Virus record (IMG/VR): IMGVR_UViG_3300021400_002728
Coordinates: 330,267 to 394,266 of that record
Source of the DNA: a virus
Taxonomy: Duplodnaviria; Heunggongvirae; Uroviricota; Caudoviricetes
DNA length: 64,000 bases
Reading direction: 5' to 3' (one strand)
In this document: in pieces, positions 111 through 62,134 of the stretch
How the letters are laid out: the number at the start of each line of letters is the position of its first letter
How positions within the stretch are numbered: position 1 is the first letter of the stretch
Position numbers and translations under genes: made by a program
Notes under the pieces: model-generated
Seen by the model: only the letters and a program-made list of their open reading frames with translations
Told to the model about the DNA's origin: nothing
Database searches by the model: none

Positions 111-686
111 TTATTTAGTCAATTGTTTCTTTATGTCTTCCATTCCGACATGCTGTCTGCCAAATACTTTGGCAAATATATCATCTTCTGTAAAATTTCC
201 ATATGATCTAGAATCAGCTGAATTCTGTCTATTATCACCTAAACAAAAATAGTGTTCATTATCTAGAGTAACACTAAAATCGTCAGTTCCACCATAGTTA
301 TAGGCATCATATGTCGGTTCACCATTTATATAAAGTGTATTTCCTTTATATTCAACAGTTTCACCAGGTAGACCAATTACCCTTTTAATTAGAGTCTTTT
401 GTGCATTGTCTGAGTAGATTACAACTACATCAAATCGCTGTAAATAATTATAATGTCTTTCAGCTAACAATATGTTAGCATCTTGATAATTAGGTTCCAT
501 AGATGGACCTGCTACTAATACTATTGTGTATTTAATATTAAATAGCATTACAAGGACTATAGCAATCATTAATATGATACACTTGATTTGTTTATACCAA
601 GGTTTCGTTTGTGGAACAATTTCATCTTTTTCTATTTCTTCAACATTTTCTTCTTTAGTTGTTTCAACTTTTACTTCTTCATCCAT
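111..686 (-). CDS. lepB: Signal peptidase I (S26)
   Basis: One TM segment, then GPSMEP (catalytic Ser), LIKRVIGLPGE (catalytic Lys) and GDNRQNSADSR. Start moved to 686 (MDEEVK), which follows GAGGA. Confidence 0.93.
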   Translation of the reverse strand: MDEEVKVETTKEENVEEIEKDEIVPQTKPWYKQIKCIILMIAIVLVMLFNIKYTIVLVAGPSMEPNYQDANILLAERHYNYLQRFDVVVIYSDNAQKTLIKRVIGLPGETVEYKGNTLYINGEPTYDAYNYGGTDDFSVTLDNEHYFCLGDNRQNSADSRSYGNFTEDDIFAKVFGRQHVGMEDIKKQLTK

Positions 687-1803
687 TATTCGCTTCCTCA
701 CTTTGTGTACTCTTTACAGTAGAATCAAGCAACATTTTATATGCAGATTCTTCCTTAATAGAATAATTAGTAATTCTCTGTGCTGGAGCTGTCCAAGGCG
801 CTACGAATAATCTACAAGTTCCAAGTCCTTTTGCTTCTTTATACGCTTTTTTAACTTGTTCTACAATATAATTATTGCCACACAAGTATAATAAGAAACC
901 AAAGACCATATTATCTTTATAAGACTTCATAATTTTATCATAACGATTACCAGTCTTAGCAGAGAGTTCCATTTCAATTGCCCAACTTTGCGGCTGTCCA
1001 TTAGGTAGTCTAAATGCTGGAATTACTAAGTCAGGACGCTGTGTATAGATCCCATCTTTATTCTTTTCAGGATCTTCTGTAGCTAATGTAAAGAGTGAAT
1101 AGTCTTGAAATTCTGCAGTAAATTTTGCTTTATTTCTAATAGACTGAATAAGTTTGTCTTGACCTTCTCTTACTGAAGCAGCGTCAATTTTGCCTTTATA
1201 TTCTTCTTCAGTAAAGATAGGTACACCAACTTTCTGTTGTGATTTGATCTTTAATGGATGATATGTAGGTAAGCATTGTGCTTCACTCTTTTGAATAAAA
1301 TACCAAATTTCTGATGTAGGATTTCCCATCATAACATCAAACATAATCTGCATTTCTGCACATGTATGATTAAGTAAATTAAATGGAACATCTACATATC
1401 CAGGTCTATTTTTATGTTCTATTCCATTTTTATCAACCCAGGTAGAATCATAAATATCCATTAAATCAAATAAAAAGTAGGTTGGTCTGATAAACACACC
1501 AGTTGAACCAGTCTGTGCCCATACTAAACCAACTCTAATAAATCTCTCAATCTGATTATAACCGTTAGTTGCATATACTTCATACCACTGCTGAATTAAC
1601 CAAGCAGGAGCCCATCTAAAACGAGCTATAATATAAAGTACTACTTCATCAAGAGTATAAATAGAAGCCACGTCATCAATCGTTTTGATCTCGACGTGAT
1701 CTGCATACATATTTACATGAGGTGTAACTTTTGGATATCGATAGTATGTATTTTTTACAGCTTCTTCATCCTGTATTTCTAGTAATTCTAATTGACTTCT
1801 CAT
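679..1803 (-). CDS. Replication-relaxation / MOBC-like relaxase (PD-(D/E)xK fold)
   Basis: LLNHTCAE, then RPD...AIEMELSAKTGNRY, matching the MOBC-type D-xn-ExE-xxxK-xxx-RY signature. Confidence 0.7.
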   Translation of the reverse strand: MRSQLELLEIQDEEAVKNTYYRYPKVTPHVNMYADHVEIKTIDDVASIYTLDEVVLYIIARFRWAPAWLIQQWYEVYATNGYNQIERFIRVGLVWAQTGSTGVFIRPTYFLFDLMDIYDSTWVDKNGIEHKNRPGYVDVPFNLLNHTCAEMQIMFDVMMGNPTSEIWYFIQKSEAQCLPTYHPLKIKSQQKVGVPIFTEEEYKGKIDAASVREGQDKLIQSIRNKAKFTAEFQDYSLFTLATEDPEKNKDGIYTQRPDLVIPAFRLPNGQPQSWAIEMELSAKTGNRYDKIMKSYKDNMVFGFLLYLCGNNYIVEQVKKAYKEAKGLGTCRLFVAPWTAPAQRITNYSIKEESAYKMLLDSTVKSTQSEEANNG

Positions 1804-2342
1804 TCTTTAATCTCAACTTTCTGAACAGTGTATCTTTTACCGTCAGTTGCTACGAAATCATTAATAGCTGTAAAGTAGATATAAGGAATTACTGGAATTA
1901 CTGCCCACAATATAATCCACCAAGGATTTTTCTTGTGTTTCATTGTGAACTGCCACATCATCATGCACCATAAAACTAATGTTATAAGAGCAAATGCTAT
2001 CAGTACATACTTAGTAGCTACTGCAATAGTTCCTATAGTTGTAGGTACCTGAACTTCTACTGTACTAAATTCACCTTCAGAAGAAGGTAAAGTAATTGCA
2101 TAAGCATATGTCTGCATAATCCAGATTTCGTATCCAAAACAGAAGGCAAAGTATAACCAAAATACTACATGTGATATTCCATTAGCAATAGCTAATTTTT
2201 TACATCCTACAGACTTTCCTAATTTATATTTATTAAATCCTGGTATAAATGCTTGCTTAACAGGTATACCTCGTTTATAGAACATAATGGCTCTACATAC
2301 AGCACATATAATAGTTAATATAAATACTGCACCAATTGTCAT
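1800..2342 (-). CDS. 4-TM membrane protein, DUF5684-like
   Basis: Hydrophobic helices with FYKRGIPVKQAFIPGFNKY and WAVIPVIPYIYF; stop overlaps the relaxase start (ATGA). Confidence 0.55.
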   Translation of the reverse strand: MTIGAVFILTIICAVCRAIMFYKRGIPVKQAFIPGFNKYKLGKSVGCKKLAIANGISHVVFWLYFAFCFGYEIWIMQTYAYAITLPSSEGEFSTVEVQVPTTIGTIAVATKYVLIAFALITLVLWCMMMWQFTMKHKKNPWWIILWAVIPVIPYIYFTAINDFVATDGKRYTVQKVEIKE

Positions 2343-2406
2343 TTTTCTAACTTCCTTTCTAAAATCATCATTCTTTATCTACTAGAATGATATCTATATT
2401 GCATAT

Positions 2407-2424
2407 TATTATTAAATAGCTTTT
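2407..2424 (-). promoter_or_regulatory. Element-specific box (AAAAGCTATTTAATAATA) upstream of the relaxase/lepB operon
   Basis: One of 10 same-orientation copies of the GAAGAGCTATTTAATWWTA consensus. Confidence 0.65.
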
Positions 2425-2440: not shown

Positions 2441-3811
2441 TTAAGCGAGTGTTTTAGCTAGCTCAAGGAGTGCTGTTCTTTCATTTTTAACCTGATCATC
2501 AATAACTGCATCAAAGAGACTTTTAAGAATTTGACCTACAAGAGGACCTGGCTTGATGTTGAGTAGATCGATAATATCTTTACCACCAACCTCAAGGTCA
2601 GTGATCTTGAAAGCATTTTCCTGCTCTACTACAATATCAATATTTTTCTTAAATATCTCAAATCTCTGAAGCATATCGTTCCAAGCATCTTCTTCACCTA
2701 CAGGACATCTATGGTCCATAATATCAGCTTCTTTAAGGAAGATCCAGTCTCTTACAAGTTCTTCACTAGTATTGACGATAAATCTTCTAATGTGTTTGTA
2801 TTCAGGACTAACCGTATCATCGTGATGAAGAATAAGATCAATAATCCGTTCTCTTTCTCTTACAGAAAGTCTAAGGTCTTTTTCAAATACTTCTCTTGCA
2901 ATATCTACACTGACAAGCTGATGTCCGTAGAAATGATCACAATTGTATTCATCATCATGAACTCTACTAGCAGGTTTACCAATATCATGAAGCAGTGCCG
3001 CAAGCTTAATCTCAAACTTATTAGACTTGCAACCATCTACAACATAAAGAATATGCTCGTAAATATCATGAGGATGCCATCTACTATTGTGAGGTGCACC
3101 AATACAAGGTTTCATCTCAGGAATGATAACACTCACAATATCAGAAAACTCAGTGAAGATTTCTCTAATAGGATTACCACTTACAAGCATCTTACGAAGC
3201 TCATCAGTGATTCTTTCTTTAGAGATACATTCATCAAGTCTCTTAAGAACTTCAACATCATGCATTGCAACCTTAGTAGAATCTTCAATAGTGAAGCCAT
3301 ACTTAATTGCAAATCTCATAGCACGAAGAACTCTAAGAGGATCTTCAATGAATCTCTGTTTTGCATCACCAACACAACGAACAATACCTTTTGCAAGATC
3401 ATCTCTACCATTGAAAGGATCTACGAATTCGTTCGTAACAGGATTCTTAGCAATAGCATTCATAGTGAAGTCACGTCTTGCAAGATCTTCTTTAAGTGAA
3501 GGTGTGAAAGTAACAGTATCAGGATGACGTCCATCATCATACTTACCATCAATTCTATATGTAGTCACTTCATAGAAGTCAGAGTCTTTGTTAACTCTAA
3601 CAGAAACAGTACCATGTTTCAGGCCTGTATCTATGTGTGAATTAAATAGTCTTTGAACCTGTTCAGGTAATGCATTAGTAGTAATGTCTATATCTTTTGC
3701 ATCACGACCCATGATAGAATCTCTAACGAATCCACCAACAAGGTAAGCCTCAAATCCATTCTTGATTAAGACTTCTGAAACTTTAATTGCATTTTCTAAC
3801 ATCTTGTCCAT
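2441..3811 (-). CDS. cca: CCA tRNA nucleotidyltransferase (class II) with HD domain
   Basis: VGGFVRD, DIDI, RRDFTMNA, EDPLRVLRAMRF, ERI and LLHDIGK motifs. Confidence 0.9.
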   Translation of the reverse strand: MDKMLENAIKVSEVLIKNGFEAYLVGGFVRDSIMGRDAKDIDITTNALPEQVQRLFNSHIDTGLKHGTVSVRVNKDSDFYEVTTYRIDGKYDDGRHPDTVTFTPSLKEDLARRDFTMNAIAKNPVTNEFVDPFNGRDDLAKGIVRCVGDAKQRFIEDPLRVLRAMRFAIKYGFTIEDSTKVAMHDVEVLKRLDECISKERITDELRKMLVSGNPIREIFTEFSDIVSVIIPEMKPCIGAPHNSRWHPHDIYEHILYVVDGCKSNKFEIKLAALLHDIGKPASRVHDDEYNCDHFYGHQLVSVDIAREVFEKDLRLSVRERERIIDLILHHDDTVSPEYKHIRRFIVNTSEELVRDWIFLKEADIMDHRCPVGEEDAWNDMLQRFEIFKKNIDIVVEQENAFKITDLEVGGKDIIDLLNIKPGPLVGQILKSLFDAVIDDQVKNERTALLELAKTLA

Positions 3812-6160: not shown

Positions 6161-7348
6161 TTATTCTGTTAAAGTTACATATTGTGTACAAGATAATGAT
6201 CCATCAGGTGTTTGCCAATTTATAGTATATGTTCCAGGACCATCAGGTTGGTACGACAAAAATACTCCGCCAGTTTCAGGACTACAATATGCGTTATTTT
6301 TATCATAGTCATAGTAATGAATATGAGATTGAGCTCTCATTAAAAATGCTTGCATGACAATTGGATCACCACCAGGTGGACCATCAACTGACATTGACCA
6401 AGTAAAACTATCAGCAGTTAATTGTGGATGTTTTATTGTATTAGTTCCATCATCATTTATACCTGCATCTTGATCACCGTATCCAGAATCATTATCATTG
6501 TTAGGATTATCATCATCTCTATTAGTTTGTTCTGTTAATTGATTTACTTGTTCTTGTCGCTCTATAAGATCTCCAACATCTCTATTAGCAATAGTTTGTT
6601 TAACTAATAAAATTTGTAAATCAATTTTAGATATATTTCCAGAACTATCTGTAGCAGTATAAGTTACAATAATATTATCGTCAGAACTACTATCAAAATT
6701 CGGTTTTTCAGGATATGTTATAGTTATATCTTTTAAAGCTGAATAGTTATCAGTTATAGACATAATATAATCTTCTGCATTCCAATTTTTAGTATCATTA
6801 GTATATCTACGTAAAGTAACATTATGATACAGACCTTCACTAGTTTTAGGAAGTTCTTTTCCAGTTTTAGGATCTTTAAGAGTAACTACAGGTCCAGTAA
6901 TATCTTTAACTCTAACTGAAAGAGTAGTTGTATTATGTTTTACTCTATTATTAGAATTATATGTTATTATATAATCACCAATTGTAGCAGTATCTACATT
7001 TCCTTCAATAGTAAATGAATAAGCTTTATTTTCTGGATCTATAAAAGATTCATATTCTCGAGTATTAACTGTATCAATATAACTATCTGCAATAAAGTTA
7101 AAGTTCTCTTGATTATATGGAATTTCAATGTAAAATCCATTATCATCTTGACTTACATTTTTTAACATAATTTGAGGATTAGTAAGTGCATCATAAATAA
7201 AATCTCGTAAGAAAAATCCAGCGACGCATACATCAATAACTGTTATTACGGTTATCGCAAGTATGATTTTTGGTGCTTTACTTATATGTATCTCACCAAA
7301 TACGACGTCAGCGTCACCTTTATATTTCCAGGTAACAGTTTTGCTCAT
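6161..7348 (-). CDS. Membrane-anchored Ig-like (DUF5011/HYR-like) protein, paralogue 3
   Basis: WKYKG motif + TM + RDFIYD; VDTATIGDYIITY, VKDITGPVVTL, TYTATDSSGN. Confidence 0.75.
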   Translation of the reverse strand: MSKTVTWKYKGDADVVFGEIHISKAPKIILAITVITVIDVCVAGFFLRDFIYDALTNPQIMLKNVSQDDNGFYIEIPYNQENFNFIADSYIDTVNTREYESFIDPENKAYSFTIEGNVDTATIGDYIITYNSNNRVKHNTTTLSVRVKDITGPVVTLKDPKTGKELPKTSEGLYHNVTLRRYTNDTKNWNAEDYIMSITDNYSALKDITITYPEKPNFDSSSDDNIIVTYTATDSSGNISKIDLQILLVKQTIANRDVGDLIERQEQVNQLTEQTNRDDDNPNNDNDSGYGDQDAGINDDGTNTIKHPQLTADSFTWSMSVDGPPGGDPIVMQAFLMRAQSHIHYYDYDKNNAYCSPETGGVFLSYQPDGPGTYTINWQTPDGSLSCTQYVTLTE

Positions 7349-7366
7349 ACGTATTTTCCTTTCTTT

Positions 7367-8422
7367 TTATTGATGTGCATGCGAAGCTCTATGTTCAATC
7401 CATTCTGATTCTGGTACTTTTGCTCCACATTCTGGACAAGTATATATAAGATTATCTGAGTTTCCTCCTCCATTATTGTTATTATTTCCGCCACCACTAG
7501 AAGGTTTAGTAACAATAATAGGTTCTTCTTGTTTTTCATTCCATTCACTAATACGAGCTTGAAGTTTGTCATATAATATATCAGAATCTAGACTAACTAC
7601 TATACTAAGAATTTCTGAACTTATATTACCAAATTCATCTGTAGTAGTAAATTCTATAGAATAACTTTTAGTAGGAAGGTCAATAAGTTCTAAGTATCTA
7701 TTTTGTAGTTCTTCCATTTCTTCTAAGCTATATTTTTCTATATTTGTATCAAACTCACTTGTATCAATATATAAATTTTGAATGTCTAGTAATTGTACAG
7801 AATTACCTGATATAGTAATTTCATAAGTTAGGTTATCTCTTAAATAACTATTAGAAGATTTATCATCGGATATTGACTGAATAAAATTCATAGGATCAAA
7901 AGTTTGAATATCTTCATGATTATAGTAAAGAGTAACTTCATTTGTTTTAAGTGTAATAGTAGGTGCAATTTCATCTTTAGGAGTTAGAACTGTAACATTC
8001 ATAGTAATCTCATTTTCTTGAATGTGATTAGAAGAATGATAAGTAACAGTGTATTGTTCAGGACGTTGTGTATCTACATTACTGTCAATTACTAAAGTAT
8101 ATGGAAATTCTATAGATTCATCTGTAATATTATTTAGTGATTCTATAAACTTATCATATTTGATAGTTTTAGTTTTATCAATGTAGTCCAAAGGATCAAA
8201 ATCACTTTGGTATTGAACTACTATATTATCTTTAATAAGAACTATATGCGGATTATTGAGTTTGTCGTAGATAAAATCTCTTTTAATAAAGCCAATAATA
8301 CCAATAACAATGACAGCTAGAACTATAAAGGCAGTCAATATTTTTGGTAAAGGGCTTGCATGTCGCTCACCAAGAGTAATATCAGCTTCGCCCTTATAAT
8401 TCCAGGTCATTGTTTTACTCAT
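7367..8422 (-). CDS. Membrane-anchored Ig-like protein with C-terminal C2H2-like motif, paralogue 2
   Basis: WNYKG + TM + RDFIYD; DEIAPTITL, TTDEFGN; ends CPECG...HRASH. Confidence 0.75.
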   Translation of the reverse strand: MSKTMTWNYKGEADITLGERHASPLPKILTAFIVLAVIVIGIIGFIKRDFIYDKLNNPHIVLIKDNIVVQYQSDFDPLDYIDKTKTIKYDKFIESLNNITDESIEFPYTLVIDSNVDTQRPEQYTVTYHSSNHIQENEITMNVTVLTPKDEIAPTITLKTNEVTLYYNHEDIQTFDPMNFIQSISDDKSSNSYLRDNLTYEITISGNSVQLLDIQNLYIDTSEFDTNIEKYSLEEMEELQNRYLELIDLPTKSYSIEFTTTDEFGNISSEILSIVVSLDSDILYDKLQARISEWNEKQEEPIIVTKPSSGGGNNNNNGGGNSDNLIYTCPECGAKVPESEWIEHRASHAHQ

Positions 8423-8445
8423 ATTATCTTAATTTTCCTTTCATA

Positions 8446-9579
8446 TTATTCTGTAGTTTCTTCTATATAGTCTTCTTCTACATGTGTATCATCTTTTACG
8501 GTGATCTTTTGTGTACAAGTTAGACCATCAGTTGTACTCCAAAGAACTTCATAGGTACCTGGTTCAGTGATATTTTCTGTTACAAAAGCACCAGAAACAG
8601 GATAGAATGATTCTTCTCCATTATAATCAATGAGTTCCATAGCAGCTAATACAAATCCATCCGAACCACTAGATAAAGGCCAAATCATATCATTAGCTTC
8701 TATACTAATAGTAGGAGTTTCTGTAATAGGTTCTGGATCATCTTCCTTAGTTCTTTCCCAGTTACCTAATAAAATATTCAATTCACGTTCCATAGCATTG
8801 ATTCTCTCTTTTTGAGATTCTGCTACAGCATCATATTTATCCATTACTGTAAGAGGAAGTCTAGCAACACTAGAGTTACCTGCTTTATCTACTGCAGTAT
8901 AGATAATTTCAAAGTTTTGTATTCCTTTTCCATTTTCGAGATCGATATCCTGACCAGTATTATCAAGTTTTATATCTTTCTCTTCATAGAAATCATCTGT
9001 TACAGACACTAAATAGTCATTAGCATTAAAGTCTAAAGTACCTAAAATATCATCACTATTATGAGCGCCTCTAACTAATATAATAGGATCATATTCACCA
9101 CTATCGTTAAAAGTAGATTTTAGTTTAATTACAGGAGCAGTTAGATCTTTAACATGAACCATTACTTTAATAGTCTGTTCAGACATTTTATTGGCTGAAT
9201 GATATATTAAGGTATAATCTCCTATAACATTTGTATCAACACTACCTTCTATAGAATAAGTATAGTTAGTGTTATTAGGATCCATAAACTCTTCATATTT
9301 TAATGTTGTTTCATCGTTTATATAATTTTCCGGATGAAACTCATACTTGTATGGTAGATTCAAATAATAACCATTTTCATTAATATTTGCATACAACTGT
9401 ATTTGAGGATTATTCACTATATCATAGATATAATCTCTTAAAATGAAAGCAGCGCCGCCTATAGCTACCAATACAAGTGTAGTAAAAATAGCAATAATAG
9501 TAGGTAAAGGACTATTCGCCTTAGCACCAAAGGACGCAGTAGGTCGGCCTTTATAATACCATTCTTGTATTTGACTCAT
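8446..9579 (-). CDS. Membrane-anchored Ig-like protein, paralogue 1
   Basis: WYYKG + TM + RDYIYD; VDTNVIGDYTLIY, VKDLTAPVIKL, YTAVDKAGN. Confidence 0.75.
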   Translation of the reverse strand: MSQIQEWYYKGRPTASFGAKANSPLPTIIAIFTTLVLVAIGGAAFILRDYIYDIVNNPQIQLYANINENGYYLNLPYKYEFHPENYINDETTLKYEEFMDPNNTNYTYSIEGSVDTNVIGDYTLIYHSANKMSEQTIKVMVHVKDLTAPVIKLKSTFNDSGEYDPIILVRGAHNSDDILGTLDFNANDYLVSVTDDFYEEKDIKLDNTGQDIDLENGKGIQNFEIIYTAVDKAGNSSVARLPLTVMDKYDAVAESQKERINAMERELNILLGNWERTKEDDPEPITETPTISIEANDMIWPLSSGSDGFVLAAMELIDYNGEESFYPVSGAFVTENITEPGTYEVLWSTTDGLTCTQKITVKDDTHVEEDYIEETTE

Positions 9580-10427
9580 ACGACTCCTCTTCCTTTCAAG
9601 AAAATTAATGCTATTAATCCTATATCAATTGCTAGAACTACAATATCTAATATAGTATTGATTAGTCCACCAGTTGTACAAGTAATAGGAAGTTTGCATT
9701 TAAACCAACAATGCCCACCTATTGGTATAGGCCATAAAAGTGGTACACCACCGTCTGCGAAGAAATCCTCCAGACAGTGAAATATATAGCCAAAACCTAT
9801 GCATAAACCTAAGATTCGTAAATGATCATAATCCAAAGTAAATGTATAGAGAAGTACAAGTACTGGAAGAATATAACTTAATAGTTTAGGTAGTTTGAAT
9901 AATTTTATAATTCGATATAAGATCATATCACTACCACAAAGAACTGCCATAAATAAAACTACCATAAAGAATAAGACTGCAACATTACTTTGTAAGAATC
10001 CATCAAATGTTTCTTCTTTAATCCCACCAAATATTGTAGTTTCACCTGTAGGCATTCCAAACCAAAATAAGCATAAAATTCCACCACCTGCGACTAATGT
10101 ATGCCAAAAATATCTATGTGGAGTCATCGGCATTCTTTCTCTTCTTGTATGAACTAGTGTCCATATAATAGAGCTTGTGGATTGCATAAAGATAGTGATG
10201 ATACTTCCCATAAATCCTAAAGTAGATCCAGCAGAACTAGAACAGTTATCTAGGTCTGGAAGTAAAGCCCCACCAACAAGAACCGTTAATCCAATAATAA
10301 AGAATAAGATGTTATCTTTCAATAGCCAAAGTGTTTCTTCGAAGACATTTACAGGAATAAGCAAACAAATGCATAAAAACATCACGGACAATAGTGCGTG
10401 CGTTTTTCCCATAAATCCCTTAACCAT
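9576..10427 (-). CDS. YdjM-like membrane-bound metal-dependent hydrolase
   Basis: MGKTH, GALLPDLD, HRYFWH and HCLEDFFADGGVPLLWP motifs; multiple TM segments. Confidence 0.8.
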   Translation of the reverse strand: MVKGFMGKTHALLSVMFLCICLLIPVNVFEETLWLLKDNILFFIIGLTVLVGGALLPDLDNCSSSAGSTLGFMGSIITIFMQSTSSIIWTLVHTRRERMPMTPHRYFWHTLVAGGGILCLFWFGMPTGETTIFGGIKEETFDGFLQSNVAVLFFMVVLFMAVLCGSDMILYRIIKLFKLPKLLSYILPVLVLLYTFTLDYDHLRILGLCIGFGYIFHCLEDFFADGGVPLLWPIPIGGHCWFKCKLPITCTTGGLINTILDIVVLAIDIGLIALIFLKGRGVV

Positions 10428-10497: not shown

Positions 10498-13400
10498 TTA
10501 CTGTCTACCGCCATTATTATCAGTGTTATTTCCATAAATACCACTAATTGTACGACGATCTTGACGCATTGCGTCCATTCTAGCTTCATCAGCTGTGTAC
10601 TCAGATTTCTGTGCACCATGCTCATGACTGATAGATTGAGTCTTCTGATCAATAATATCATTCATTGCCTGCTGAGCTCTCATAGCTTCACCTTGTCTAG
10701 CTTCAGATGCTGATACAGTTTCTCTCTGATTGATTACAGAACTCATATCAGGTTGCTGCTGTGGTGTAGTACCATACATTCCTGCTGCGACATTTCTCTG
10801 AGGAGGAGTGTTAGGTCTAGTTGGAACAGGTCCATTAGCTCTACCAGGTTGTGGTTGTGCCTGCTGAGGTCTAGCATTTTGCATAGACTGAGGTGTAGGT
10901 CTAGCTGCCTGTTGAGGCTGCTGAGTAGGATTAGTTGCCTGTTGAGGCTGAGGTGTAGGTCTTGTTGCCTGTGGCTGCGGTCTAGACTGTTGAGGTCTAG
11001 CAGCTTGTTGAGGCTGAGGTCCAAGATTATCTAATCCTTCTAATACACTACCATCGCTCTTACCACTAGGTGTTGGTGCTTGTGCCTGTGTATTGTTATA
11101 CATAGACATTGGCTGAGGTTTAGGTTGTGCTTGAGCTTGAGGTTGTGGCTGACTCTGTGGCTGAGGTGCAGATTGAGCACCTGGCTTAGTCTTCAAGTTA
11201 ATTGTAGTTTTAGAAGCTGCTGCTTCTTGTGCGCTAACAACTGAAGCCATATCATTTCCACTGTTACTACTACTGCTACCACTACCAGAATCAGTTTTAC
11301 CATTAGGAGTATAGTTATTGATAGCACTTTGAAGCTGTTCTTGTACAGATGCAGAACGTACAACTTTACCAGCATCGGATTTAGCTTGAGCATATTGACC
11401 CTTAACTGCAGCCTTCTGCTCACCATGGGCTTCATTTTGTCTATCAACCTCTTTATTCCATGCTTCAACCGCTGCATCATACTCTTCTTGAGATTTAGCT
11501 TCTTGCATATTCTTCATTAAGCCTTCTCTAACGTGAGCATCTGCAGAATGCTTATCTTTATCATAGTGCTGAGAAACTCTATCAACAATATCTTTGATTT
11601 CTTCCTGAGCTTCTCTAGATGATTTAACATCTTCACCATTCTGAAGTTGTTTTAACTGAAGCATAGCTGCTGCCTGAGCAGATGCTGCTTCTTTATTAAG
11701 CTTCTGAGTAGATCCACGACCAATCTTACCTTGAAGAGTAGTATTATTAACTTCATCTGACATAGTATTAATAGCTGAAGTAAGTGCTGCTTCAAGCTCA
11801 TCTTTATGCTTAGCAACTGCAGCGTCTTTAGTAGCATTCTTGATCTTTTCATCAATATTACCACCTGTAGCAGAATCATAATCGATCCCACGTTTTGCCA
11901 GAGCTTCTCTAGCTGCACGCTCCTTAATAGCTTCTTTAACTTTCTCTTTTTCAGTAGTAATCTGCTGAGTCTTAGCGGCAATTTTCTTTTTATACTCAGC
12001 TAATCTAGCTTCATCTTCTTCAGCCATCTTATGAGGTTCTTCGCCTTCTTTAAGCTTAGCATTAAGTCTCTGAAGTTCTTCTCTTTGTTTAATAAGGTCT
12101 TTATAGTCAGCGTTATTCTGTAATTCTTCTAACTCTTCTCTATGACCTCTATGATCAGCTACCATACGTCTTTCTTCTTCAGTAAGCAATGCATCATCAA
12201 ATGTAGTATCACCATACTCATCTGTACCAGTAATAGCATCAGTTAAAGTACGATTAACTTCATTGTTGACTGCGGTATTTTCTTTTGCAGCTTCAGCATA
12301 CATTGCCGCACGTTTCTCTTCAACGATACTTTCAGCATTTTTACGTATCTGTGAAGCGGCAGTAGCTTTGCTAATCTGACGATCTTTATTAAGCTTAGTA
12401 TGCATTCCAATAAGACCTTCATGCTCATTACCTTCTGCAAATACTGCATTAGTACCAGTATGCATAAGCTTAGAAAGTGCATTACCTTTACGTGATTCAA
12501 CGATAGCTTTACCGTCTTTATCATAACCAACAACTTTACCTGACTTATCATAAGCATCTACTGCTTCTCTTGATTTCTGCTTAGCCCAGTTCTTAAATGC
12601 TCTTCTCTGATCAACAAGTGCTGGAGAAATATTTCTTTCAGTTCTCTCCATGACCTGTTTAATTTTCTGAGCAATTACAGGGTTAAAGTAAAGTAATAAT
12701 AGCAATAAGCCTAAAGTTGCCAATAATGCAAGAAGTGTAGGCTGGAACATTGCACATACTGTATAAAGAATAATATCAAAAATAATAGAATATATAGTAA
12801 TCTCTAAGAATGATACTAACAACATTCCGAGAATACCTTTACCAGTCTGAACTAATTTCTTATTTGATGTAAGAATTAATGGACCTGCAAGAATCATACC
12901 TAATAATGCAATAAATAACTGAATTTTAGCAATAACTACATTAAGTGCATACTTAAATAATACTACAGCTAACATTGCTAATACAACTGCAAATAATAAT
13001 AAGCATAACATTCTTGCACCACCACCAGGTGTAGCAAATGCAGCAACTGTAGTTATAATTCGCTGTTTAACTGCAGCATCAGATGTATTATTATATTGTG
13101 TTTGTAAATAAGTCATCATAGATGACATTTTATTATAACAAGATTGTGTATCTGTTGATGGATATGTTTTATTCAAACTTGTTTTACTAGTGGCACTAGA
13201 ATTAGCAAACCAATAGTAATAACCTAAGTTTTCATTAAAATCATTATGCATATTAGCACCACTTACACCAGATAAGTAGCTAGATGCCGTAGATCCGCCT
13301 GAATCACCAAACTTATCAAATTTAAGATCATCTATATGATTTGTATTAAACTGACAGCATAATTGTAAATCAATAAATGCTTTATTAACTAAAGCCATTT

Positions 13401-35794: not shown

Positions 35795-35795
35795 A

Positions 35796-44986: not shown

Positions 44987-45406
44987 CTAAATTTCTATCA
45001 AGTTGTCCATATCAAGGACCGCCCAATTATTTTCGATAAAGGCTTGAAAGTCTTCATATATATTTGTAAATTCTAATAGCGAGGCAAACTCAAAGATATT
45101 GATAGTTTTTAAGCTCTTTATCAATTCTTTTACTTCGGCTATTGATAGAATTTCTGTAAAAAAACGACGCTGATTATTATAAAAATCTTCAGCGTCAATG
45201 TAAAGAAATTCGTCCAGATCTTCATCGGACTCTGTATATAATATAAAACACTCTTGATGCTTGATGTCTGCCTTTAATCCGATTTTATATAGAACTTTTC
45301 GAATGACATTTCCATCATTATATGTTACTCTTAATTCTTCAGTTAAAGGCTTTAGACGATCTAAGCAATAATAATTAAACTCTTGATGTTGCTTAGTCAG
45401 ATTCAT
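44987..45406 (-). CDS. Hypothetical protein
   Basis: Start overlaps the sbcD stop (ATGA). Confidence 0.65.
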   Translation of the reverse strand: MNLTKQHQEFNYYCLDRLKPLTEELRVTYNDGNVIRKVLYKIGLKADIKHQECFILYTESDEDLDEFLYIDAEDFYNNQRRFFTEILSIAEVKELIKSLKTINIFEFASLLEFTNIYEDFQAFIENNWAVLDMDNLIEI

Positions 45407-51593: not shown

Positions 51594-52040
51594 TTAGAAA
51601 TCATCATATGCATCATAAGACGCGGTTGCAGGGGCGGAATCAGGCGTAGCAGCGGGCTGTTCTGCAGGCTTAGATGCCGCAGGCTGTTCAGCAGGAGCTG
51701 ACTCTCCACCAGAAACGTTTCCGTCAGACTTCTTACCAAAGAACTCTACATTATCAATGATCATCTTAAAACCATACACCTTAGTTCCGTCTTCTTTGGT
51801 ATAGTTATTATTCTGGAATGATCCTTCAATGAGCGCCTTAGATCCCTTCTTAAAATACTTGGCGATAAACTCTGCAGTCTTACCGAATGCTACATACTGG
51901 AACCAGTCTGTATCAGGCTCGTTCTCTTTATGGAAGCGTCTTGCAACTGCTCCGCTAAAAGTAACAAGAGTTCCACCATCACCATAGGTTTTAACCTCGG
52001 GATCTCCACCAAAAGTAACTGTTTGAGTTGTTCTGTTCAT
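51594..52040 (-). CDS. ssb: Single-stranded DNA-binding protein
   Basis: DWFQYVAFGKTAEFIAKYFKKGSKALIEG, NVEFF, P/A linker and acidic DAYDDF tail. Confidence 0.93.
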   Translation of the reverse strand: MNRTTQTVTFGGDPEVKTYGDGGTLVTFSGAVARRFHKENEPDTDWFQYVAFGKTAEFIAKYFKKGSKALIEGSFQNNNYTKEDGTKVYGFKMIIDNVEFFGKKSDGNVSGGESAPAEQPAASKPAEQPAATPDSAPATASYDAYDDF

Positions 52041-52141: not shown

Positions 52142-53827
52142 TTAAACCTTGAAGAAATCAACTGCATCTTTAAGATCATCTGCAAGATTCTTCATAGTAG
52201 TCATATCTTCTGATACACTATTTACTGCCTGAGATACTGTAACGGTAGTAGCAGTTACCTCTTCATTTGTAGCAGAAGTCTCTTCTGAAATAGCAGACAG
52301 ATCAGAAATTGCACCGGAAATAACTGACTTAATTTCATCAAGCTTCTTAGTAATATCTGATACTTTATTAATGTTATCTACTGAAGAAGTAATCTCATTA
52401 TTAAGTGCATCGAACTGTTCCATGGCAATCTGAAGAAGTTCCTGTTCTTTATCAATAATTGCCTTAACTTCATCTGCCTGAGTTACACAATTAGCAGAAA
52501 GATCAGTAATCTCATTTACAACATCTTTAATGTTCTTAGCAGATGCATTACTATCAGCAGCAAGTTTACCAATTTCATCAGCCACTACTGCAAATCCTCT
52601 ACCAGATTCACCAGCTCTTGCAGCTTCAATCTGAGCATTGAGTGATAAGAGATTAGTCTGACCAGCAATATCAGAGATAAGCTTAACCATTTCACTGATC
52701 TTTTCAACTGCAGTATTTGTATTGTTAATGCTCTGACGAATATTTGTAACAGCATCGACAGATTTCTTGCTACTTTCAGAAATATCAGAAATACACTGCA
52801 TAGCGTTTGTATTTGCATTAGACATTGTATCAGTACTATCTTTAAGAACTGAAACTATATCTACAGCATTAGATACAATTTTATCCATATCAGATACATT
52901 CTCACTAATATCCTGTACGTTCTCAGCAAGAGTAACTGTACCATCAGCAAGATTACTCATAGAATCAGAGATCTGTGACATATCACTAGATACCTGTTCT
53001 GCATTACAAGTAGTTTCTTCGATCTTTTCATCAAGACCGGTCATATTTGTATTGATCTTAGATAAAATTTCCTGAAGATTAGCTAAAAGAATCTTAATAC
53101 TATCAATAAGTGTAATAGTCTCAGTTATATGAGATTTGGTATTAAGCTCAATCTTAGTTTCACCAGTAGAAAGTGTTTTAAGACTATCTGCAACTTCTTT
53201 AATAGGATTAGAAACCTTTTTAGCAATCATAATAGCGACTATAGTAAAAAATCCAATAAGAAGTGCAGCAATACCTATAATAATAAGCATAATATGCTGT
53301 TCTGCTTTCTGAATCTGAGTAGCAGGTTTACCAGCAAATGCCATACCTACAACATTTTTATTAGCGTCATATAGAGGCATATAGTATACAAAATAATCAA
53401 TTCCACCAATTTTTACATCATTAGACTGGTAATCTTCTTTAGACTTAACAGCTTTCCATACCGCTTCAGATGCAGTAGTTCCTTCATTTCTTGTACCGTC
53501 TTCATTTCTAAGAGATGTCATAAACCGTACATCGTCTTTGAAAAGTGTAAGATGTACACCGACATTATTATTAACGACGTCAATATATTCAGTTGGATCA
53601 TACTCGACAAAACCATCAGTTAGATCCACATCATTTACCAAGTCATATTCATAATAACTCTTAAGACCCTGTGCAGCTAACTTCAGTTCTTCAAAAGTAG
53701 TAGTTTCAAGATTTGAATTCATTATGTTTAAAGAAACTACAGCTAACATAATGATTCCACATGTCAGAGGGACCAATGCAAATAAGATTAGCATTAGTCT
53801 CAAGTTAATACCCTTTTTATTATTCAT
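52142..53827 (-). CDS. Methyl-accepting chemotaxis protein with Cache-type sensor domain
   Basis: TM-sensor-TM-HAMP layout, then [34 protein letters not shown]. Confidence 0.95.
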
Positions 53828-57559: not shown

Positions 57560-58180
57560 TCAACCATTCTTAAAGAAATTAAAGTTAGTGATGTTAGTAG
57601 CATTGTCTAAATAACCTTCTCCTAACTTTCCATTTAAATCTAAAGTTTCAAACATTTGTTCAAACATACCATCTACAGTCTTACCTAGAACAATTTTATT
57701 TTGAATATACTTAACTATATCATATGAAAATGCTTTATCTGACTGCGCAGTTAATATACAATCAATCTTAACACTAGGTCCAAGTTTAATAATAGTTTCT
57801 ATCATTCCAGTAACTGCTTCAGCTAATTCATCATTATCTTCATTTATAATATATTCATCAAATGAATCAATTACAGTTACAATATAACCATGTTCATCTA
57901 AAGATTTACCATTTTTAATCCATTCATATCTACGCATTACTTCTGGTAAAATAAGCTGTTTTAATTCTATTGAAATATCTTCTAGAGATCTAGCACTAGT
58001 TTTGAAATCTAAATAGTTATCATTTCCAGTAAAAATACTAATTGTATTTGTATGTTCGTTATTAAGTTTATATTGCTTTATTATGTTTTTAACAAGAGTT
58101 GTTTTACCTGAACCTGGTAATCCAACTATTATAGTAGAACCAGGATCTAGGCTTACAATCTTTGTACCTATTTCTATCAT
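57560..58180 (-). CDS. Small FtsK/SpoIIIE-like P-loop ATPase without TM
   Basis: GLPGSGKT, EVMRRY, VIDSF, KLGPSVKIDCILTAQ and GEGYL; start moved to MIEIG after AGGAG. Confidence 0.6.
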   Translation of the reverse strand: MIEIGTKIVSLDPGSTIIVGLPGSGKTTLVKNIIKQYKLNNEHTNTISIFTGNDNYLDFKTSARSLEDISIELKQLILPEVMRRYEWIKNGKSLDEHGYIVTVIDSFDEYIINEDNDELAEAVTGMIETIIKLGPSVKIDCILTAQSDKAFSYDIVKYIQNKIVLGKTVDGMFEQMFETLDLNGKLGEGYLDNATNITNFNFFKNG

Positions 58181-58192
58181 AAGCGAACTCCT

Positions 58193-58224
58193 AATAAAAA
58201 TGGCTACCCATTTCTGAGTAGCCA
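58193..58224 (-). terminator. Terminator
   Basis: TGGCTAC...GTAGCCA followed by TTTTTATT. Confidence 0.7.
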
Positions 58225-58240
58225 CAGTAAAACATTATCA

Positions 58241-59180: not shown

Positions 59181-59214
59181 ATTATATCACAGATTAGATA
59201 AAAAGTAAATAGTT
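59181..59214 (-). promoter_or_regulatory. Sigma-A type promoter
   Basis: AACTATTTACT-17 nt-TATAAT with extended TG. Confidence 0.75.
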
Positions 59215-60373
59215 AGTGTAATTCTTTGTAGTCCCAATCTTTTACTAAACCCTTAGCTTGCAATTCAGGATCTTGAATCATTTTATTAATTTCTTTAGAA
59301 AGGTTAGCATCAGGATCATCAAGAAGTTCTACTAGTCTAGCAGTAATCTCATCTTCAAAGAGTAAGAATTGAGTATCTACTAAGTATTTACCATTACTCT
59401 TAAGCATTTTCTGTGAAAGAATAATATTAAGCTGAAGAATAAGGTCAAGTGACAAATTTTTATCATTATCAAGGTGATATAAAAGTCTGTTAACTGTACC
59501 TGCAACATCAGAAGCATGGAAAGTTGTACTAGTAACATGACCTGTACGAGCTGCTTCAATAGCTGCACAAATAACTTCTTTATCTCTACACTCACCTACA
59601 ATAATGATATTAGGGTGTTCACGAAGAGCGGCCTTAATACCCATACCAAATGTTAAGAAATCTTTACCTAATTCTTTTTGGCTAATCTTTACACTATCAG
59701 TACTATTAAAAATATTTTCAATAGGATCTTCAAGTGTGATAAAAACTTTATTATCTAGTATCTCCCCTGGCTGAGTAAATGTGTTAATACATGCAGCCAT
59801 AGTAGTTGATTTACCAGAACCAGTAGGACCTGTTTCATAACAAATACCAGATGACTTTTTATATGCCCGTCTAAGTGCTTCTATACATTTCTCATTATAA
59901 TTAATTGTGTCAAATGTTGGCTGATCAGGTTTAATCATTCTGAATGTAGCAACGTTCTTTTCTTCTGAGAATCCAAAAGAAACACGATAACGATATACAT
60001 TATTCGGATATTTACCATAGTTAGGACTAGTTTCAGGAACTCTGACTGCAACTGATGTATCAAGAAGTTTCTGTCTAACATAACCAGCATTCAACTCATT
60101 AAGAATATACTTATCATAGAAGATTGACCATGTATCTTTTGAAATTGGCGCACAGGGAACTCTTACAATACGACCAAATCTTGAAATATAAGGATAGTCA
60201 AATGTTTTTATATATAAGTCTGAACAGTTATGTTCAGTAGTAAAGATGAGTAAATCCTCAATAGACATAGATTGTTTATTAAGCGCAAGTATATCTGCGT
60301 TAGGATTTTCTGGTGTAGATTCCTTAATTTCTTCATCTTTTGGTTTTATATTTAACTTCAATACCTCTGACAT
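59213..60373 (-). CDS. PilT/DotB/VirB11-family secretion ATPase
   Basis: SDLYI, GPTGSGKSTT, ITLEDPIE, ALREHPNIIIVGECRD and TGH...TFH motifs. Confidence 0.88.
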   Translation of the reverse strand: MSEVLKLNIKPKDEEIKESTPENPNADILALNKQSMSIEDLLIFTTEHNCSDLYIKTFDYPYISRFGRIVRVPCAPISKDTWSIFYDKYILNELNAGYVRQKLLDTSVAVRVPETSPNYGKYPNNVYRYRVSFGFSEEKNVATFRMIKPDQPTFDTINYNEKCIEALRRAYKKSSGICYETGPTGSGKSTTMAACINTFTQPGEILDNKVFITLEDPIENIFNSTDSVKISQKELGKDFLTFGMGIKAALREHPNIIIVGECRDKEVICAAIEAARTGHVTSTTFHASDVAGTVNRLLYHLDNDKNLSLDLILQLNIILSQKMLKSNGKYLVDTQFLLFEDEITARLVELLDDPDANLSKEINKMIQDPELQAKGLVKDWDYKELH

Positions 60374-60385
60374 GTGATCACCTCA

Positions 60386-61714
60386 TTATAAGTCTTCACC
60401 AATAGCAGGAGACCAAATAGGTTTGCCATTAGCAGTTGAAAGTCCTTCTGTATCACCTACAGTTGCACCAGAATTCTGCTGGAAGCTAAGCGGGAACATA
60501 AGAGGTCCAGTATGTAAGAACTTCTTAGGCTTCTTATTGATATAATTATCAAGGAAGTCAAGCGCCTGAGTAAGTGATTTAGAAACAAGAATATTTCTAT
60601 CCTTACATTCAGTAATAAGATTCATTACACGCTGTTTAAGCTCAGACTTAGACTCAGCATAAATAAGAATTGAGCAGTTAAACTGACATAATACAGTACC
60701 AGCTTCGAGATCCTGAATAGCCATAGTAGCAATATCAATGCTATTCTGTGTCTCTTCAATAGACTCAATTTCGGCACCTGCGTCAATAGCCTGATCACGC
60801 TCATATCTATCGGATGCTCTAGTTCTTTTTAACTTAAGCATAGCATCTTCTTTCTTAAGACACTGAATTGTTGTAACGACATTAGGATAATCCATAGGGA
60901 AGTTACAAGTTGAAATCTGAGGTGGAAATGCCTGAATATCAAGCATACAACCATAAGTTGTCTGAGGATCAAGACCAAAAATGTCCATACCTTCATTATG
61001 CATCTCAAACCAACCAAAATTATCAGATACAGTCTGAGTTACTGCTCCCATAATCGCAGTATAAGTCTTCTCACTAATATAAGAAAGTCTGTCATAAGAA
61101 ATCTCATAACATGGGAATACTTTACTTACAAAGTTATAGAAAACTAATTCCTTAGAAGCACGAACACATTTATAGTTAATTGTTCTATAAATGTTCTCTT
61201 CAATCTTCATAATCTTCTCTGGATCAGCTTTAAGGTTACCGAGACCTGCAAACTTATTAGCAGCATTCTTAGCAATAGCTTTAGCTGTATCTAAAAGGGT
61301 AAATTCTTCAACATCAGTAACAGTAGTCTGCTGAATATCAATACCAAGCATACAATAAGACTGAAGATCATCTCTTACATTTTTAGTAAACTCAGGTGGC
61401 ATATCATAATCTTCACGATAGATCTTAATGGTATTGTAAAGATTTTCAAGTACGTCTCTACGTCTAATAGTCTTCTCAATACGTTCAATCGTAAACTGAA
61501 CCGTAGGATTATTAGTAGTAAGGTTAGCAATCATATTAGTAATTTGCTGAACTGTACTATGTACTCCACCAGGTGAGTTTGTTGAGTAATTTGATAATGG
61601 AATTACATAAAAAGCTGTAATAACACCATTATTATAGAGAATGTTATCGCCAATAATGTCAATAGTATTTTGAACTCTGACATTTGTTCTAGCGGAAGTG
61701 TCTTGTTTAGCCAT
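60386..61714 (-). CDS. VirB4/TcpF-like N-terminal domain protein without ATPase motifs
   Basis: IGDNILY...AFYVIP start and position directly after the TcpE-like gene; no Walker A found in 442 aa. Confidence 0.5.
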   Translation of the reverse strand: MAKQDTSARTNVRVQNTIDIIGDNILYNNGVITAFYVIPLSNYSTNSPGGVHSTVQQITNMIANLTTNNPTVQFTIERIEKTIRRRDVLENLYNTIKIYREDYDMPPEFTKNVRDDLQSYCMLGIDIQQTTVTDVEEFTLLDTAKAIAKNAANKFAGLGNLKADPEKIMKIEENIYRTINYKCVRASKELVFYNFVSKVFPCYEISYDRLSYISEKTYTAIMGAVTQTVSDNFGWFEMHNEGMDIFGLDPQTTYGCMLDIQAFPPQISTCNFPMDYPNVVTTIQCLKKEDAMLKLKRTRASDRYERDQAIDAGAEIESIEETQNSIDIATMAIQDLEAGTVLCQFNCSILIYAESKSELKQRVMNLITECKDRNILVSKSLTQALDFLDNYINKKPKKFLHTGPLMFPLSFQQNSGATVGDTEGLSTANGKPIWSPAIGEDL

Positions 61715-61732
61715 ATTATCTAATTTCCTTTC

Positions 61733-62134
61733 TTATAGAATATTACGCACAAATCCTTTGAATTTTACATTAGTCAAATGAAATTCAGAATGTTTGAAGT
61801 CGTTCATATAAACTTTCTTTGGCTTAAAGTATGCAGCAAGATATTGATATAATCTATAACCAGCAAACTGAATATACCATAATGCACAACCGGCACCAAT
61901 ACCTAAAGCTGTCCAAAAGATTGTCCAAGCTGGCTTAAAATGTCCACCAAATGGATTAAAGAAACTAATTCCGAACGGAATTCCTAAAACTACACCAATA
62001 GCAATAACTACAATTGCAGCAGGTGCAACAACTTTAAGAAATTCAACTGAAAAACCACCGGCAATATTATAACCACCTACATTATAGATTTTTGTATCTC
62101 TTTTCTGAAGAGATGAATAGTTGTACAGAATCAT
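61733..62134 (-). CDS. TcpE/VirB3-like membrane protein
   Basis: YNYS...KIYNVGG, two TM segments, then GYRLYQYL...YFKPKK. Confidence 0.6.
   Translation of the reverse strand: MILYNYSSLQKRDTKIYNVGGYNIAGGFSVEFLKVVAPAAIVVIAIGVVLGIPFGISFFNPFGGHFKPAWTIFWTALGIGAGCALWYIQFAGYRLYQYLAAYFKPKKVYMNDFKHSEFHLTNVKFKGFVRNIL

Follow-up and report, generated by a model that had tools for sequence, protein, structure and literature searches.

A probable conjugation system with a two-gene VirB4 and a DotB/PilT-family ATPase on a giant plasmid-like element filed as a virus

Genes of the window and the element that carries it

The window analyzed here is a 64-kb stretch of DNA (bases 330267–394266, the last 64 kb of the single 394,266-bp contig G000:C1) from IMG/VR record IMGVR_UViG_3300021400_002728, and it carries a set of genes resembling those of Gram-positive conjugative type IV secretion systems (T4SS), among them the N-terminal half of a VirB4 that is encoded as two genes and, directly beside it, an ATPase of the DotB/PilT family. 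Gene coordinates are window positions unless a prefix (G000:C1, another genome G00x, or a locus L0xx) is given. The ends of the contig overlap by ~100 bp, indicating a circular assembly, and the record is filed in IMG/VR as a virus with terminal repeats. Every substantial open reading frame (ORF) of the window lies on the minus strand, GC content is 30–38%, and no tRNA gene was found in the 64 kb. The strand bias holds for the whole contig (300 ORFs of at least 150 amino acids [aa] on the minus strand compared to 12 on the plus strand), along which GC skew is negative for the full 394 kb without a switch, and the one-strand layout recurs in the three relatives fetched (G002–G004). Single-strand coding with an unswitched skew is unusual for such a circular replicon and suggests unidirectional replication or a strong transcription-driven skew.

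Four further IMG/VR contigs of 250–467 kb (G001–G004; 27–33% GC) encode a VirB4 N-terminal half (VirB4-N) with 93, 75, 60, and 57% identity to the window protein, respectively, and terminal repeats are noted for four of the five records G000–G004. Two distant relatives on smaller contigs of 136 and 51 kb (L073 and L074) have a VirB4-N that is ~30% identical. No match was obtained by megablast of 20 kb of the window against phages and plasmids, by tblastn of the relaxase-like protein, the first VirB6-like protein, and VirB4-N against PLSDB (72,556 plasmids), by tblastn of VirB4-N against 50,697 phage records (GenBank phages), or by blastn in distant mode with the ATPase/VirB4-N gene pair. The presence of a sortase, an adhesin with a PPKTG signal, a TcpC-type VirB8, and two homologs that carry the name 'Bacilli bacterium' metagenome-assembled genome argues for a monoderm host, probably a low-GC member of the Bacilli (Bacillota).

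The T4SS-like genes and their immediate neighbors in the window, followed by three genes of the same contig outside it, are:

111–701, minus strand: type I signal peptidase S26 (Pfam Peptidase_S26, E 1.8e-32; SMEP and GDNR..DSR motifs)
679–1803, minus strand: MobC-family (MOBC-like) PD-(D/E)XK nuclease, candidate relaxase, 374 aa
1800–2342, minus strand: conserved membrane protein with four transmembrane (TM) segments and no Pfam family, upstream of the relaxase-like gene (hydropathy, syntenic orthologs)
9576–10427, minus strand: YdjM-family membrane hydrolase (Pfam YdjM, E 2e-13; orthologs 52–68% identical)
10498–14418, minus strand: VirB6/TrbL-like polytopic protein no. 1, 1306 aa, seven predicted TM segments and a long C-terminal tail
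14975–16345, minus strand: membrane-anchored candidate cysteine-peptidase wall hydrolase (no Pfam family for the window copy)
16670–18046, minus strand: TcpC/VirB8-like protein, 458 aa, an N-terminal TM helix and two NTF2-like domains with an insertion
18328–31431, minus strand: surface adhesin, 4367 aa, signal peptide (Pfam TQ, E 3e-115, six copies; SpaA, E 3e-23)
34359–34709, minus strand: 116-aa membrane protein with three hydrophobic segments, the first maybe a signal sequence (hydropathy)
37634–40363, minus strand: lysozyme domain (Phage_lysozyme2, E 9e-9) fused to VirB6-like polytopic protein no. 2, 909 aa
40382–44476, minus strand: polytopic protein no. 3, 1364 aa, a large exported N-terminal part and a C-terminal TM bundle, no Pfam family
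59213–60373, minus strand: DotB/PilT-family hexameric ATPase of the VirB11 superfamily (Pfam T2SSE, E 2e-34)
60386–61714, minus strand: stand-alone N-terminal half of VirB4, 442 aa (CagE_TrbE_VirB, 19.9 bits, weak and sub-threshold)
61733–62134, minus strand: TcpE/VirB3-like small membrane protein, 133 aa (Pfam TcpE, 17.6 bits, below cut-off)
G000:C1:168316–169446 and a 7-codon first exon, outside the window: C-terminal half of VirB4 (AAA_10, E 7e-33)
G000:C1:289310–289819, 41 kb left of the window: sortase
G000:C1:328306–329880, outside the window: VirD4/TrwB-type coupling protein, 524 aa (TrwB_AAD_bind, E 1.5e-13)

VirB4 as two genes

An earlier note, made from the sequence of the window, had called the protein at 60386 VirB4-N-like, and the call stands. 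An exhaustive HMMER search with this protein returned 48 relatives, nearly all of ~430 aa, and it is collinear with residues 3–413 of a 781-aa VirB4 relative (P0155; E 4e-8) in which an AAA_10 ATPase domain follows. The family profile aligned marginally with pCW3 TcpF (hhalign, residues 277–422, E 1e-3), and a search of PDB sequences with it gave nothing meaningful. The note had also proposed looking for VirD4 and a VirB4 ATPase in the flanking sequence, and both were found outside the window in G000. The C-half, with Walker A and DEAH intact, lies ~220 kb from the N-half in this genome (90–230 kb across the five giant genomes), and its best matches in PLSDB are only ~25% identical. The end of the N-half and the start of the C-half correspond to adjacent positions of P0155, ~20 residues before Walker A; the split is clean, falls where the N-terminal domain meets the ATPase domain, and shows no intein at that point. 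After codon 7, the C-half is interrupted by a group II intron (Rfam RF00029 and RF02004; G000:C1:169463–170060, which is L001:2573–3170), and the joined exons (MSTIKWS followed by PTTAQM...) are collinear with the intron-free genes of G002 and G003.

In L073 and L074 the two halves are adjacent yet separate genes, and a VirB4 formed as a single ~800-aa polypeptide (TcpF/Orf16 type) was found in none of G000–G004, L073, and L074. This distribution suggests that the far relocation of the C-half is specific to the giant elements and that the split itself is older. A reading of VirB4-N as a pseudogene was rejected, given the wide conservation of the ~430-aa form and the existence of an intact C-half. 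A complex prediction for the two halves scored 0.49, with one control at 0.31; it gives no verdict and was not used as evidence.

Large in-frame, intein-like insertions occur in all three motor ATPases of G004 (loci L034, L038, and L036; G004:C1:47568–49745, 133924–136203, and ~90244). They lengthen the VirB4 C-half to 725 aa (G004:C1:47568–49745, with the insertion at Walker A), the DotB/PilT-like ATPase to a 759-aa frame, and the coupling protein to a 914-aa frame.

A DotB/PilT-family ATPase in the T4SS cluster

The protein at 59213, read in the earlier note as a PilT-type ATPase, was confirmed as such. In addition to its T2SSE domain, it matches the NCBIfam models PilT_fam (E 1e-49), TraJ (E 6e-42), and DotB (E 1e-39), Legionella DotB (6GEB, E 3e-34) is the best full-length match of known structure, and it has the four boxes expected of family members of ~350–400 aa that lack a long N-terminal extension, namely Walker A (GPTGSGKST), the Asp box (EDPIE), Walker B (IIIVGECRD), and the His box (TTFHA). 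The gene starts 12 nt after the VirB4 N-half. It is the sole T2SSE gene in each of the five giant genomes and adjoins the VirB4 N-half in four of them; the pair is adjacent in L007–L009, and in G004 (L010) the two genes are ~1.6 kb apart, split by an insertion. No T2SSF/PilC platform protein was matched at E ≤0.1 in the five genomes (the control was positive in 13 of 14 reference genomes), and, with no platform gene, a reading of the PilT-like and ParA-like genes as a type IV pilus or Tad system was rejected.

Outside the giant genomes, L073 encodes a T2SSE protein with 43% identity to the window ATPase over the full length, and in both L073 and L074 the ATPase gene lies 5–6 kb from the VirB4 genes. 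It stays within the T4SS cluster across 30–93% VirB4-N identity. The L073 cluster runs from an FtsK-type ATPase through the T2SSE ATPase, several membrane proteins, a TcpE-like protein, VirB4-N, and AAA_10 to an M23 peptidase, and L074 has the same core (T2SSE ATPase, VirB4-N, and AAA_10) followed by a TcpC-like gene. As a compact cluster in these two contigs combines adjacent VirB4 halves with an orthologous ATPase, the VirB4 split and the DotB/PilT-like ATPase would be old shared features of a wider T4SS lineage and not of giant elements only. Homologs of the ATPase in PLSDB are 27–32% identical, and their ten commonest genera are Proteobacteria; 3,770 of the 4,749 records are predicted conjugative, and TraJ, DotB, and PilT-type proteins are among the top matches listed. 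PHROG matches are to families of unknown function only.

Candidate channel proteins

The TcpC-like protein at 16670 has no Pfam family, and its identification, as proposed in the earlier note, comes from structure and from a bridging relative. With an AlphaFold2 model (predicted local distance difference test [pLDDT] of 71), Foldseek returned eight matches at E ≤0.001, all of them TcpC (3UB1, E 1e-6) or OrfG (7PKW/8S7L), and the family aligns with a gene annotated as TcpC (weak) that follows VirB4 in L074 (hhalign 99.8%, E 5e-28). A direct hhalign comparison with pCW3 TcpC was not significant, and profile searches of PDB sequences with the TcpC-like and VirB6-like families gave nothing meaningful. 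The TcpE-like call at 61733 was likewise upheld. This small protein, with one strong and one weaker hydrophobic segment, is encoded directly upstream of the VirB4 N-half in a conserved position, and it aligns with the product of the gene directly upstream of the unsplit VirB4 (hhalign 93%, E 3e-7); the match of its N-terminal motif to pCW3 TcpE is marginal (E 2e-3).

Of the three proteins that the note had considered VirB6-like, two are supported. The family of polytopic protein no. 1 aligns over 320 columns with a gene annotated as TrbL (weak) in the compact P0155 operon (TrbL-like, 354 aa, TcpE-like, VirB4; hhalign 98.7%, E 2e-16), and its protein language-model matches are TrbL, TrbL_3, and DUF8208 at 0.92; a comparison with pCW3 TcpH was not significant (hhalign 7% probability). 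The membrane domain of polytopic protein no. 2 is paralogous to that family (hhalign 91.7%, E 8e-7, 277 columns). For polytopic protein no. 3 the VirB6-like assignment is a lead, drawn from language-model matches to DUF8208 (the pLS20_p028 conjugation membrane protein) and TrbL_3 at 0.89–0.90. Its match to protein no. 2 is weak and confined to TM segments, and hhalign of the family of protein no. 1 against it, and against a 776-aa protein of L073, was not significant.

The 116-aa protein at 34359, for which a TcpD/VirB2-like role had been suggested, has no similarity to pCW3 TcpD and instead matches residues 510–580 of the protein at 37634–40363 (hhalign 93.7%, E 2e-7), with a shared KDGI/AIKYAKGQG loop. 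The earlier assignment is not supported by the sequence. The protein is conserved in the relatives and, from this alignment, is taken to duplicate, as a separate small protein, the TM hairpin of the VirB6-like paralog; such a mini-VirB6 segment could possibly act as a pilin-like or channel-lining subunit.

Candidate proteins for DNA processing, wall opening, and adhesion

The MOBC-like relaxase proposed at 679 is supported as a candidate MobC-family nuclease or relaxase. Matches to NF041423 (NCBIfam MobC_subf) were obtained for 26 of the 27 members of its family (best E 2e-8; window protein ~19 bits, with a cut-off of 200 bits), and the PD...ExE..K motif is invariant (P257-D258, E277, E279, and K283). 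The AlphaFold2 model (pLDDT 88) has weak matches in the PDB to PD-(D/E)XK nuclease folds. In the ESM-Atlas, it has a shape match (TM-score 0.60) to a cluster with Replic_Relax in 16% of members, and the nearest clusters are labeled Uroviricota. The signal peptidase gene, also correctly called before, overlaps the end of the relaxase-like gene and has orthologs at the same position in G002–G004. The gene order continues through a 163-aa gene to the coupling protein, an arrangement kept in four relatives.

The coupling protein and the sortase, neither of them clear to the earlier note within the window, lie outside it, 387 bp and 41 kb to the left, respectively. The coupling protein has two N-terminal TM segments and a TrwB_AAD_bind match above cut-off (the TraG-D_C match is weak), and it is conserved in all five giant genomes. 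Of two proposed wall hydrolases, the lysozyme domain of polytopic protein no. 2 is also recognized in the G004 ortholog (Phage_lysozyme2, E 7e-21); the candidate at 14975, with one TM segment and a Cys-rich motif, is weaker, being tied to peptidases through weak matches of its orthologs (a weak Peptidase_C39_2 in G002 and NlpC/P60, E 5e-7, in G003). The adhesin ends in a PPKTG sorting signal, a hydrophobic segment, and RRKK, which the sortase 41 kb to the left would fit. Beyond the RRKK come ~45 acidic residues (18328–18460), a much longer cytoplasmic tail than sortase substrates usually have. In G003, a sortase gene is found ~1 kb after the VirB4 C-half (G003:C1:212706–215496).

One syntenic module with variable cargo

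The earlier note had described a conjugation system spread over at least five loci, which holds within the window and gives way to a simpler arrangement when relatives are compared. In G002 and G004 the T4SS orthologs occur in window order within a module of 47–57 kb, and in G003 the module is interrupted by one 77-kb insertion (these three relatives are 57–75% identical to the window in the VirB4 N-half). ORFs with orthologs in at least two of the three make up 73.5% of the window, with gene order kept for nearly all. The gaps between T4SS genes are filled by genes that are absent from the relatives or sit elsewhere in them, including a CCA-adding enzyme, a chemoreceptor, lipoprotein-like genes, and others. 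From this synteny, the apparent five loci would be one conserved super-module into which variable cargo has been inserted. The VirB4 C-half is the only truly remote part of the T4SS gene set.

The module includes the following genes for DNA metabolism and positioning:

35243–35794, minus strand: DivIVA-like coiled coil (Pfam DivIVA, 24 bits)
35796–36137, minus strand: tail-less SSB-like OB fold (Pfam SSB, 24 bits)
36134–37567, minus strand: ParA/MinD-type ATPase (Pfam AAA_31 and CbiA)
45403–46437, minus strand: SbcD-like phosphoesterase (Pfam Metallophos, E 8e-15)
49218–50864, minus strand: SbcC/SMC-like ATPase (Pfam SMC_N, E 1e-17)
51594–52040, minus strand: SSB (Pfam SSB, E 5e-18)

The block at 35243–37567 is syntenic in G002–G004, and its products are candidates for positioning and the handling of single-stranded DNA. 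The SbcD-like, SbcC-like, and SSB genes have syntenic orthologs inside the module, with variable cargo between them.

Virion genes

Eight Pfam families were used in the search for virion proteins, two on G000 only (PF03237 and PF05065) and six in all five giant genomes (PF17289, PF03354, PF04466, PF04860, PF07068, and PF04984). Within this set, no match was found for Terminase_6N/6C, TerL_ATPase, Terminase_3, the HK97 capsid, the HK97 portal, or the tail sheath; the T4 Gp23 capsid (PF07068) also had no match in the five genomes, a result that is uninformative as its control was negative too. Among ten key proteins, nine have no match in PHROGs, and none matches a PHROG with a known role in the virion. 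In distant relatives, a gene with an RNA polymerase Rpb1 domain, or genes for DNA polymerase III alpha, a DnaB-like protein, and a topoisomerase, occur near the T4SS (L074:20492–21290 and L075:2588–6400).

Interpretation and rival explanations

Taken together, these genes make it likely that a giant circular plasmid-like element (394 kb) has its transfer region in the window, with a conjugative T4SS of Gram-positive architecture that has a split VirB4 and a DotB/PilT-class ATPase. In such a system, the MobC-family nuclease would nick and pilot the DNA, and the 2-TM VirD4/TrwB-type coupling protein would pass it to a channel formed by the TrbL/VirB6-like polytopic proteins with the TcpC/VirB8-like and TcpE/VirB3-like proteins. 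The lysozyme domain on the VirB6 paralog and the candidate cysteine peptidase could open the cell wall, and the mating pair could be held by the sortase-anchored 4367-aa TQ/SpaA adhesin. The N- and C-polypeptides of VirB4 would have to assemble in trans, and the DotB/PilT-family ATPase would probably sit beneath the VirB4 hexamer, the docking position of VirB11 and DotB in diderm systems.

Several points weigh against this interpretation. Only eight Pfam families were searched and the Gp23 control failed, so that a divergent capsid or terminase could escape; the record is filed as a virus; and phage-like genes (a multisubunit RNA polymerase domain, DNA polymerase III alpha, DnaB, and topoisomerase) stand beside the T4SS in distant relatives. 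The MobC_subf scores are far under the curated cut-off, and PD-(D/E)XK nucleases have many other roles. Several assignments are remote or bridging, with pCW3 TcpC, TcpD, and TcpH comparisons that are not significant, and the physical association of the VirB4 halves with each other or with the DotB-like ATPase is inferred.

One alternative is a jumbo phage or phage-plasmid, with virion genes too divergent for Pfam and a T4SS-like module that was acquired and is used alongside packaging or repurposed (for cell-to-cell spread or superinfection functions, for example). Whole-genome single-strand coding, group II intron and intein-like insertions within core genes, and phage-type cargo (GIY-YIG endonuclease, CCA-adding enzyme, SbcCD, and the Phage_lysozyme2 domain) would all suit a phage, as would the terminal repeats in four of the five virus-filed records, the Uroviricota label of the ESM-Atlas clusters, and the RNA_pol_Rpb1_2 and replisome genes near the cluster in distant relatives. 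It is nonetheless unlikely: the Pfam searches for terminase, HK97 capsid and portal, and tail sheath were negative, none of the ten key proteins matches a PHROG of known virion function, and a full conjugation set (relaxase-like gene, coupling protein, VirB4, VirB6, VirB8, VirB3, and adhesin) is conserved. The 'virus' labels may just repeat one database classification, and the Hodors, conjugative megaplasmids compared below, were likewise first filed among huge phages (PMC12934698).

Two further rivals concern the function of the machine. It is quite unlikely that the DotB/PilT-like ATPase works outside the T4SS, serving a pilus-like fiber, DNA uptake, or defense and merely sharing the same conserved region. 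Its closest family models are PilT/PilU, its PHROG matches are to families of unknown function, and in L073 and L074 it is near the VirB4 genes without being adjacent; against this stand the lack of a T2SSF/PilC platform gene in all five genomes, the single T2SSE gene per genome, which shares a gene block with the VirB4 N-half and here starts 12 nt after it, the retention of the gene within the T4SS cluster over the full range of VirB4-N identity, a T4SS ATPase (DotB) as the best full-length solved relative, and listed plasmid relatives that are mostly TraJ/DotB of conjugative plasmids. A T4SS for protein delivery or contact-dependent antagonism, or a decaying system with the split VirB4 as a pseudogene remnant, is very improbable. 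Some monoderm-type T4SSs do lack a clear conjugative role, and a split VirB4 with scattered ATPase genes could resemble decay, but the relaxase-like and coupling protein genes are conserved as neighbors, the module includes SSBs and a ParA-like gene, and both VirB4 halves are intact with catalytic motifs, in >40 clusters of ~430 aa and five complete genomes, the C-half remaining intact even across the group II intron of G000.

Comparison with known systems

A conjugative T4SS of Gram-positive architecture invites comparison with pCW3, Tn916, and ICESt3 (mating-pair formation class MPF_FA). Shared with these are a VirB8 of TcpC/OrfG type with two NTF2-like domains, a TcpE-like gene directly before VirB4, and a wall hydrolase; with pCW3, also the succession of a large VirB6-like polytopic protein and a YdjM hydrolase, an order that matches tcpH and tcpI ('metal-dependent hydrolase'), and a sortase-anchored adhesin (SpaA-type here, CnaC with a sortase on pCW3). 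Pieces resembling pCW3 TcpA, TcpG, and TcpI are found elsewhere in the G000 genome. Unlike the three systems, VirB4 is in two genes here, a DotB/PilT-family ATPase is present, there are three VirB6-like proteins (the third a lead) of which one is fused to a lysozyme, and the module extends over 47–57 kb with DNA-metabolism genes inside. In contrast to pCW3, the coupling protein is of TrwB/VirD4 type and not only the FtsK-type TcpA, the relaxase candidate is MobC-family and not TcpM, and TcpC, TcpD, and TcpH show no significant direct sequence similarity.

The ATPase itself resembles those of diderm systems, with DotB (Dot/Icm, type IVB) as its best solved full-length relative and NCBIfam scores for TraJ (IncI, MPF_I) and DotB close to the PilT score. 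It differs from them in its low identity (27–32%), in its monoderm host, and in that the rest of the machine is of Gram-positive type; among the general Pfam and NCBIfam results for the window proteins there was no other Dot/Icm component (DotC, DotD, DotG, DotH, or IcmE). The scattered genes and several large VirB6 paralogs also resemble the rvh T4SS of the Rickettsiales. That system is reportedly anomalous, with genes scattered over several genomic islands, several large 'extended' VirB6 paralogs, and duplicated components; it is said to be a diderm P-type, chromosomal, effector-secreting system with a canonical VirB11 and a VirB4 that is duplicated, not domain-split.

Among giant elements, the closest described are the Hodors, conjugative megaplasmids >300 kb of gut Bacillota, without TerL, that were filed among huge phages (PMC12934698, preprint 2026). 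They have VirB4, VirD4, a divergent VirB6, sortases, and giant surface proteins (PMC12934698), as does the element here, which is also >300 kb and virus-filed. Hodors have a GC content of 44–47%, an unsplit, 'highly conserved' VirB4, a MOBH-like relaxase, Rep_3, and ParABM, with no VirB11/PilT-type ATPase reported (PMC12934698). Identity with Hodors was rejected from their description, on GC content (27–33% here), relaxase type, and the unsplit VirB4. An experimental precedent, likened here by description only, is pXO16 of Bacillus thuringiensis sv. israelensis, a giant (350 kb) conjugative Gram-positive plasmid with an unrecognizable T4SS, whose 'tip' locus has been called a novel T4SS type (PMC9673590). 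It has very few database homologies and an unidentified relaxase, and its 25-kb transfer locus encodes two ATPases and a wall hydrolase, with aggregation proteins that aid mating (PMC9673590).

VirB11 homologs are described as universally lacking in Gram-positive T4SSs (2025 review, PMC12857230), a trait from which the present system departs, with a DotB/PilT-family ATPase conserved in the cluster. A full-text literature search on a split VirB4 or on VirB11/PilT in Gram-positive conjugation returned no description of this arrangement, and a T4SS type with a split VirB4 and a DotB/PilT-class ATPase appears to be undescribed. Its carriers are giant, probably capsid-less elements of a widespread family, together with smaller relatives. 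The suggestion in the earlier note of an undescribed T4SS subtype of giant Bacillota elements is retained for the Gram-positive parts and the conserved DotB/PilT ATPase, and dropped in its restriction to giants, given the 51- and 136-kb contigs.

The broader proposal has about an even chance of being correct: a monoderm conjugation lineage with at least three motor ATPases, a two-polypeptide VirB4, and a vertically conserved DotB/PilT-class hexamer, whose giant carriers have motor genes that are scattered over hundreds of kb and invaded by introns and inteins, yet functional. If true, such a lineage would overturn the statement of a universal VirB11 lack in Gram-positive T4SSs, for which current conjugation models work with two ATPases, VirB4 and the coupling protein, and leave out VirB11. 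The split VirB4 would offer a natural experiment on what the N-terminal domain does alone, and the extra ATPase one on the contribution of a VirB11-class motor where there is no outer membrane or pilus. The family would add to the evidence that virus databases contain many conjugative megaplasmids under the name of 250–500 kb 'huge phages'; those described here probably belong to uncultured Bacilli. Current plasmid collections and CONJscan-type models may miss the transfer systems of such elements.

Cargo genes and other observations

The cargo of the window (at 2441–3811 and 52142–53827, among other places) includes a CCA-adding enzyme with an HD domain that sits elsewhere in G002 and G003, a GIY-YIG endonuclease (Pfam), and a full-length methyl-accepting chemotaxis receptor (sCache_3_3 and MCPsignal), whose ortholog is confined to the relative with 93% identity. 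About 1 kb downstream of the DotB/PilT-like gene, 57560–58225 encodes a 221-aa P-loop NTPase, with numerous weak matches of AAA type, that is kept in close relatives only. In a distant VirB4-N relative (L072, on a contig of Logan SRR24145991), translation is possible only with TGA read as Trp, which implies that the host or the element uses genetic code 4. Three tandem paralogs of 395, 351, and 377 aa (6161–9579) are encoded downstream of the VirB6-like and YdjM genes. Each has its N-terminus in the cytoplasm, a single TM helix, and a surface domain of the bacterial Ig-like type; G002–G004 have one corresponding gene, which indicates a local triplication of a surface protein.

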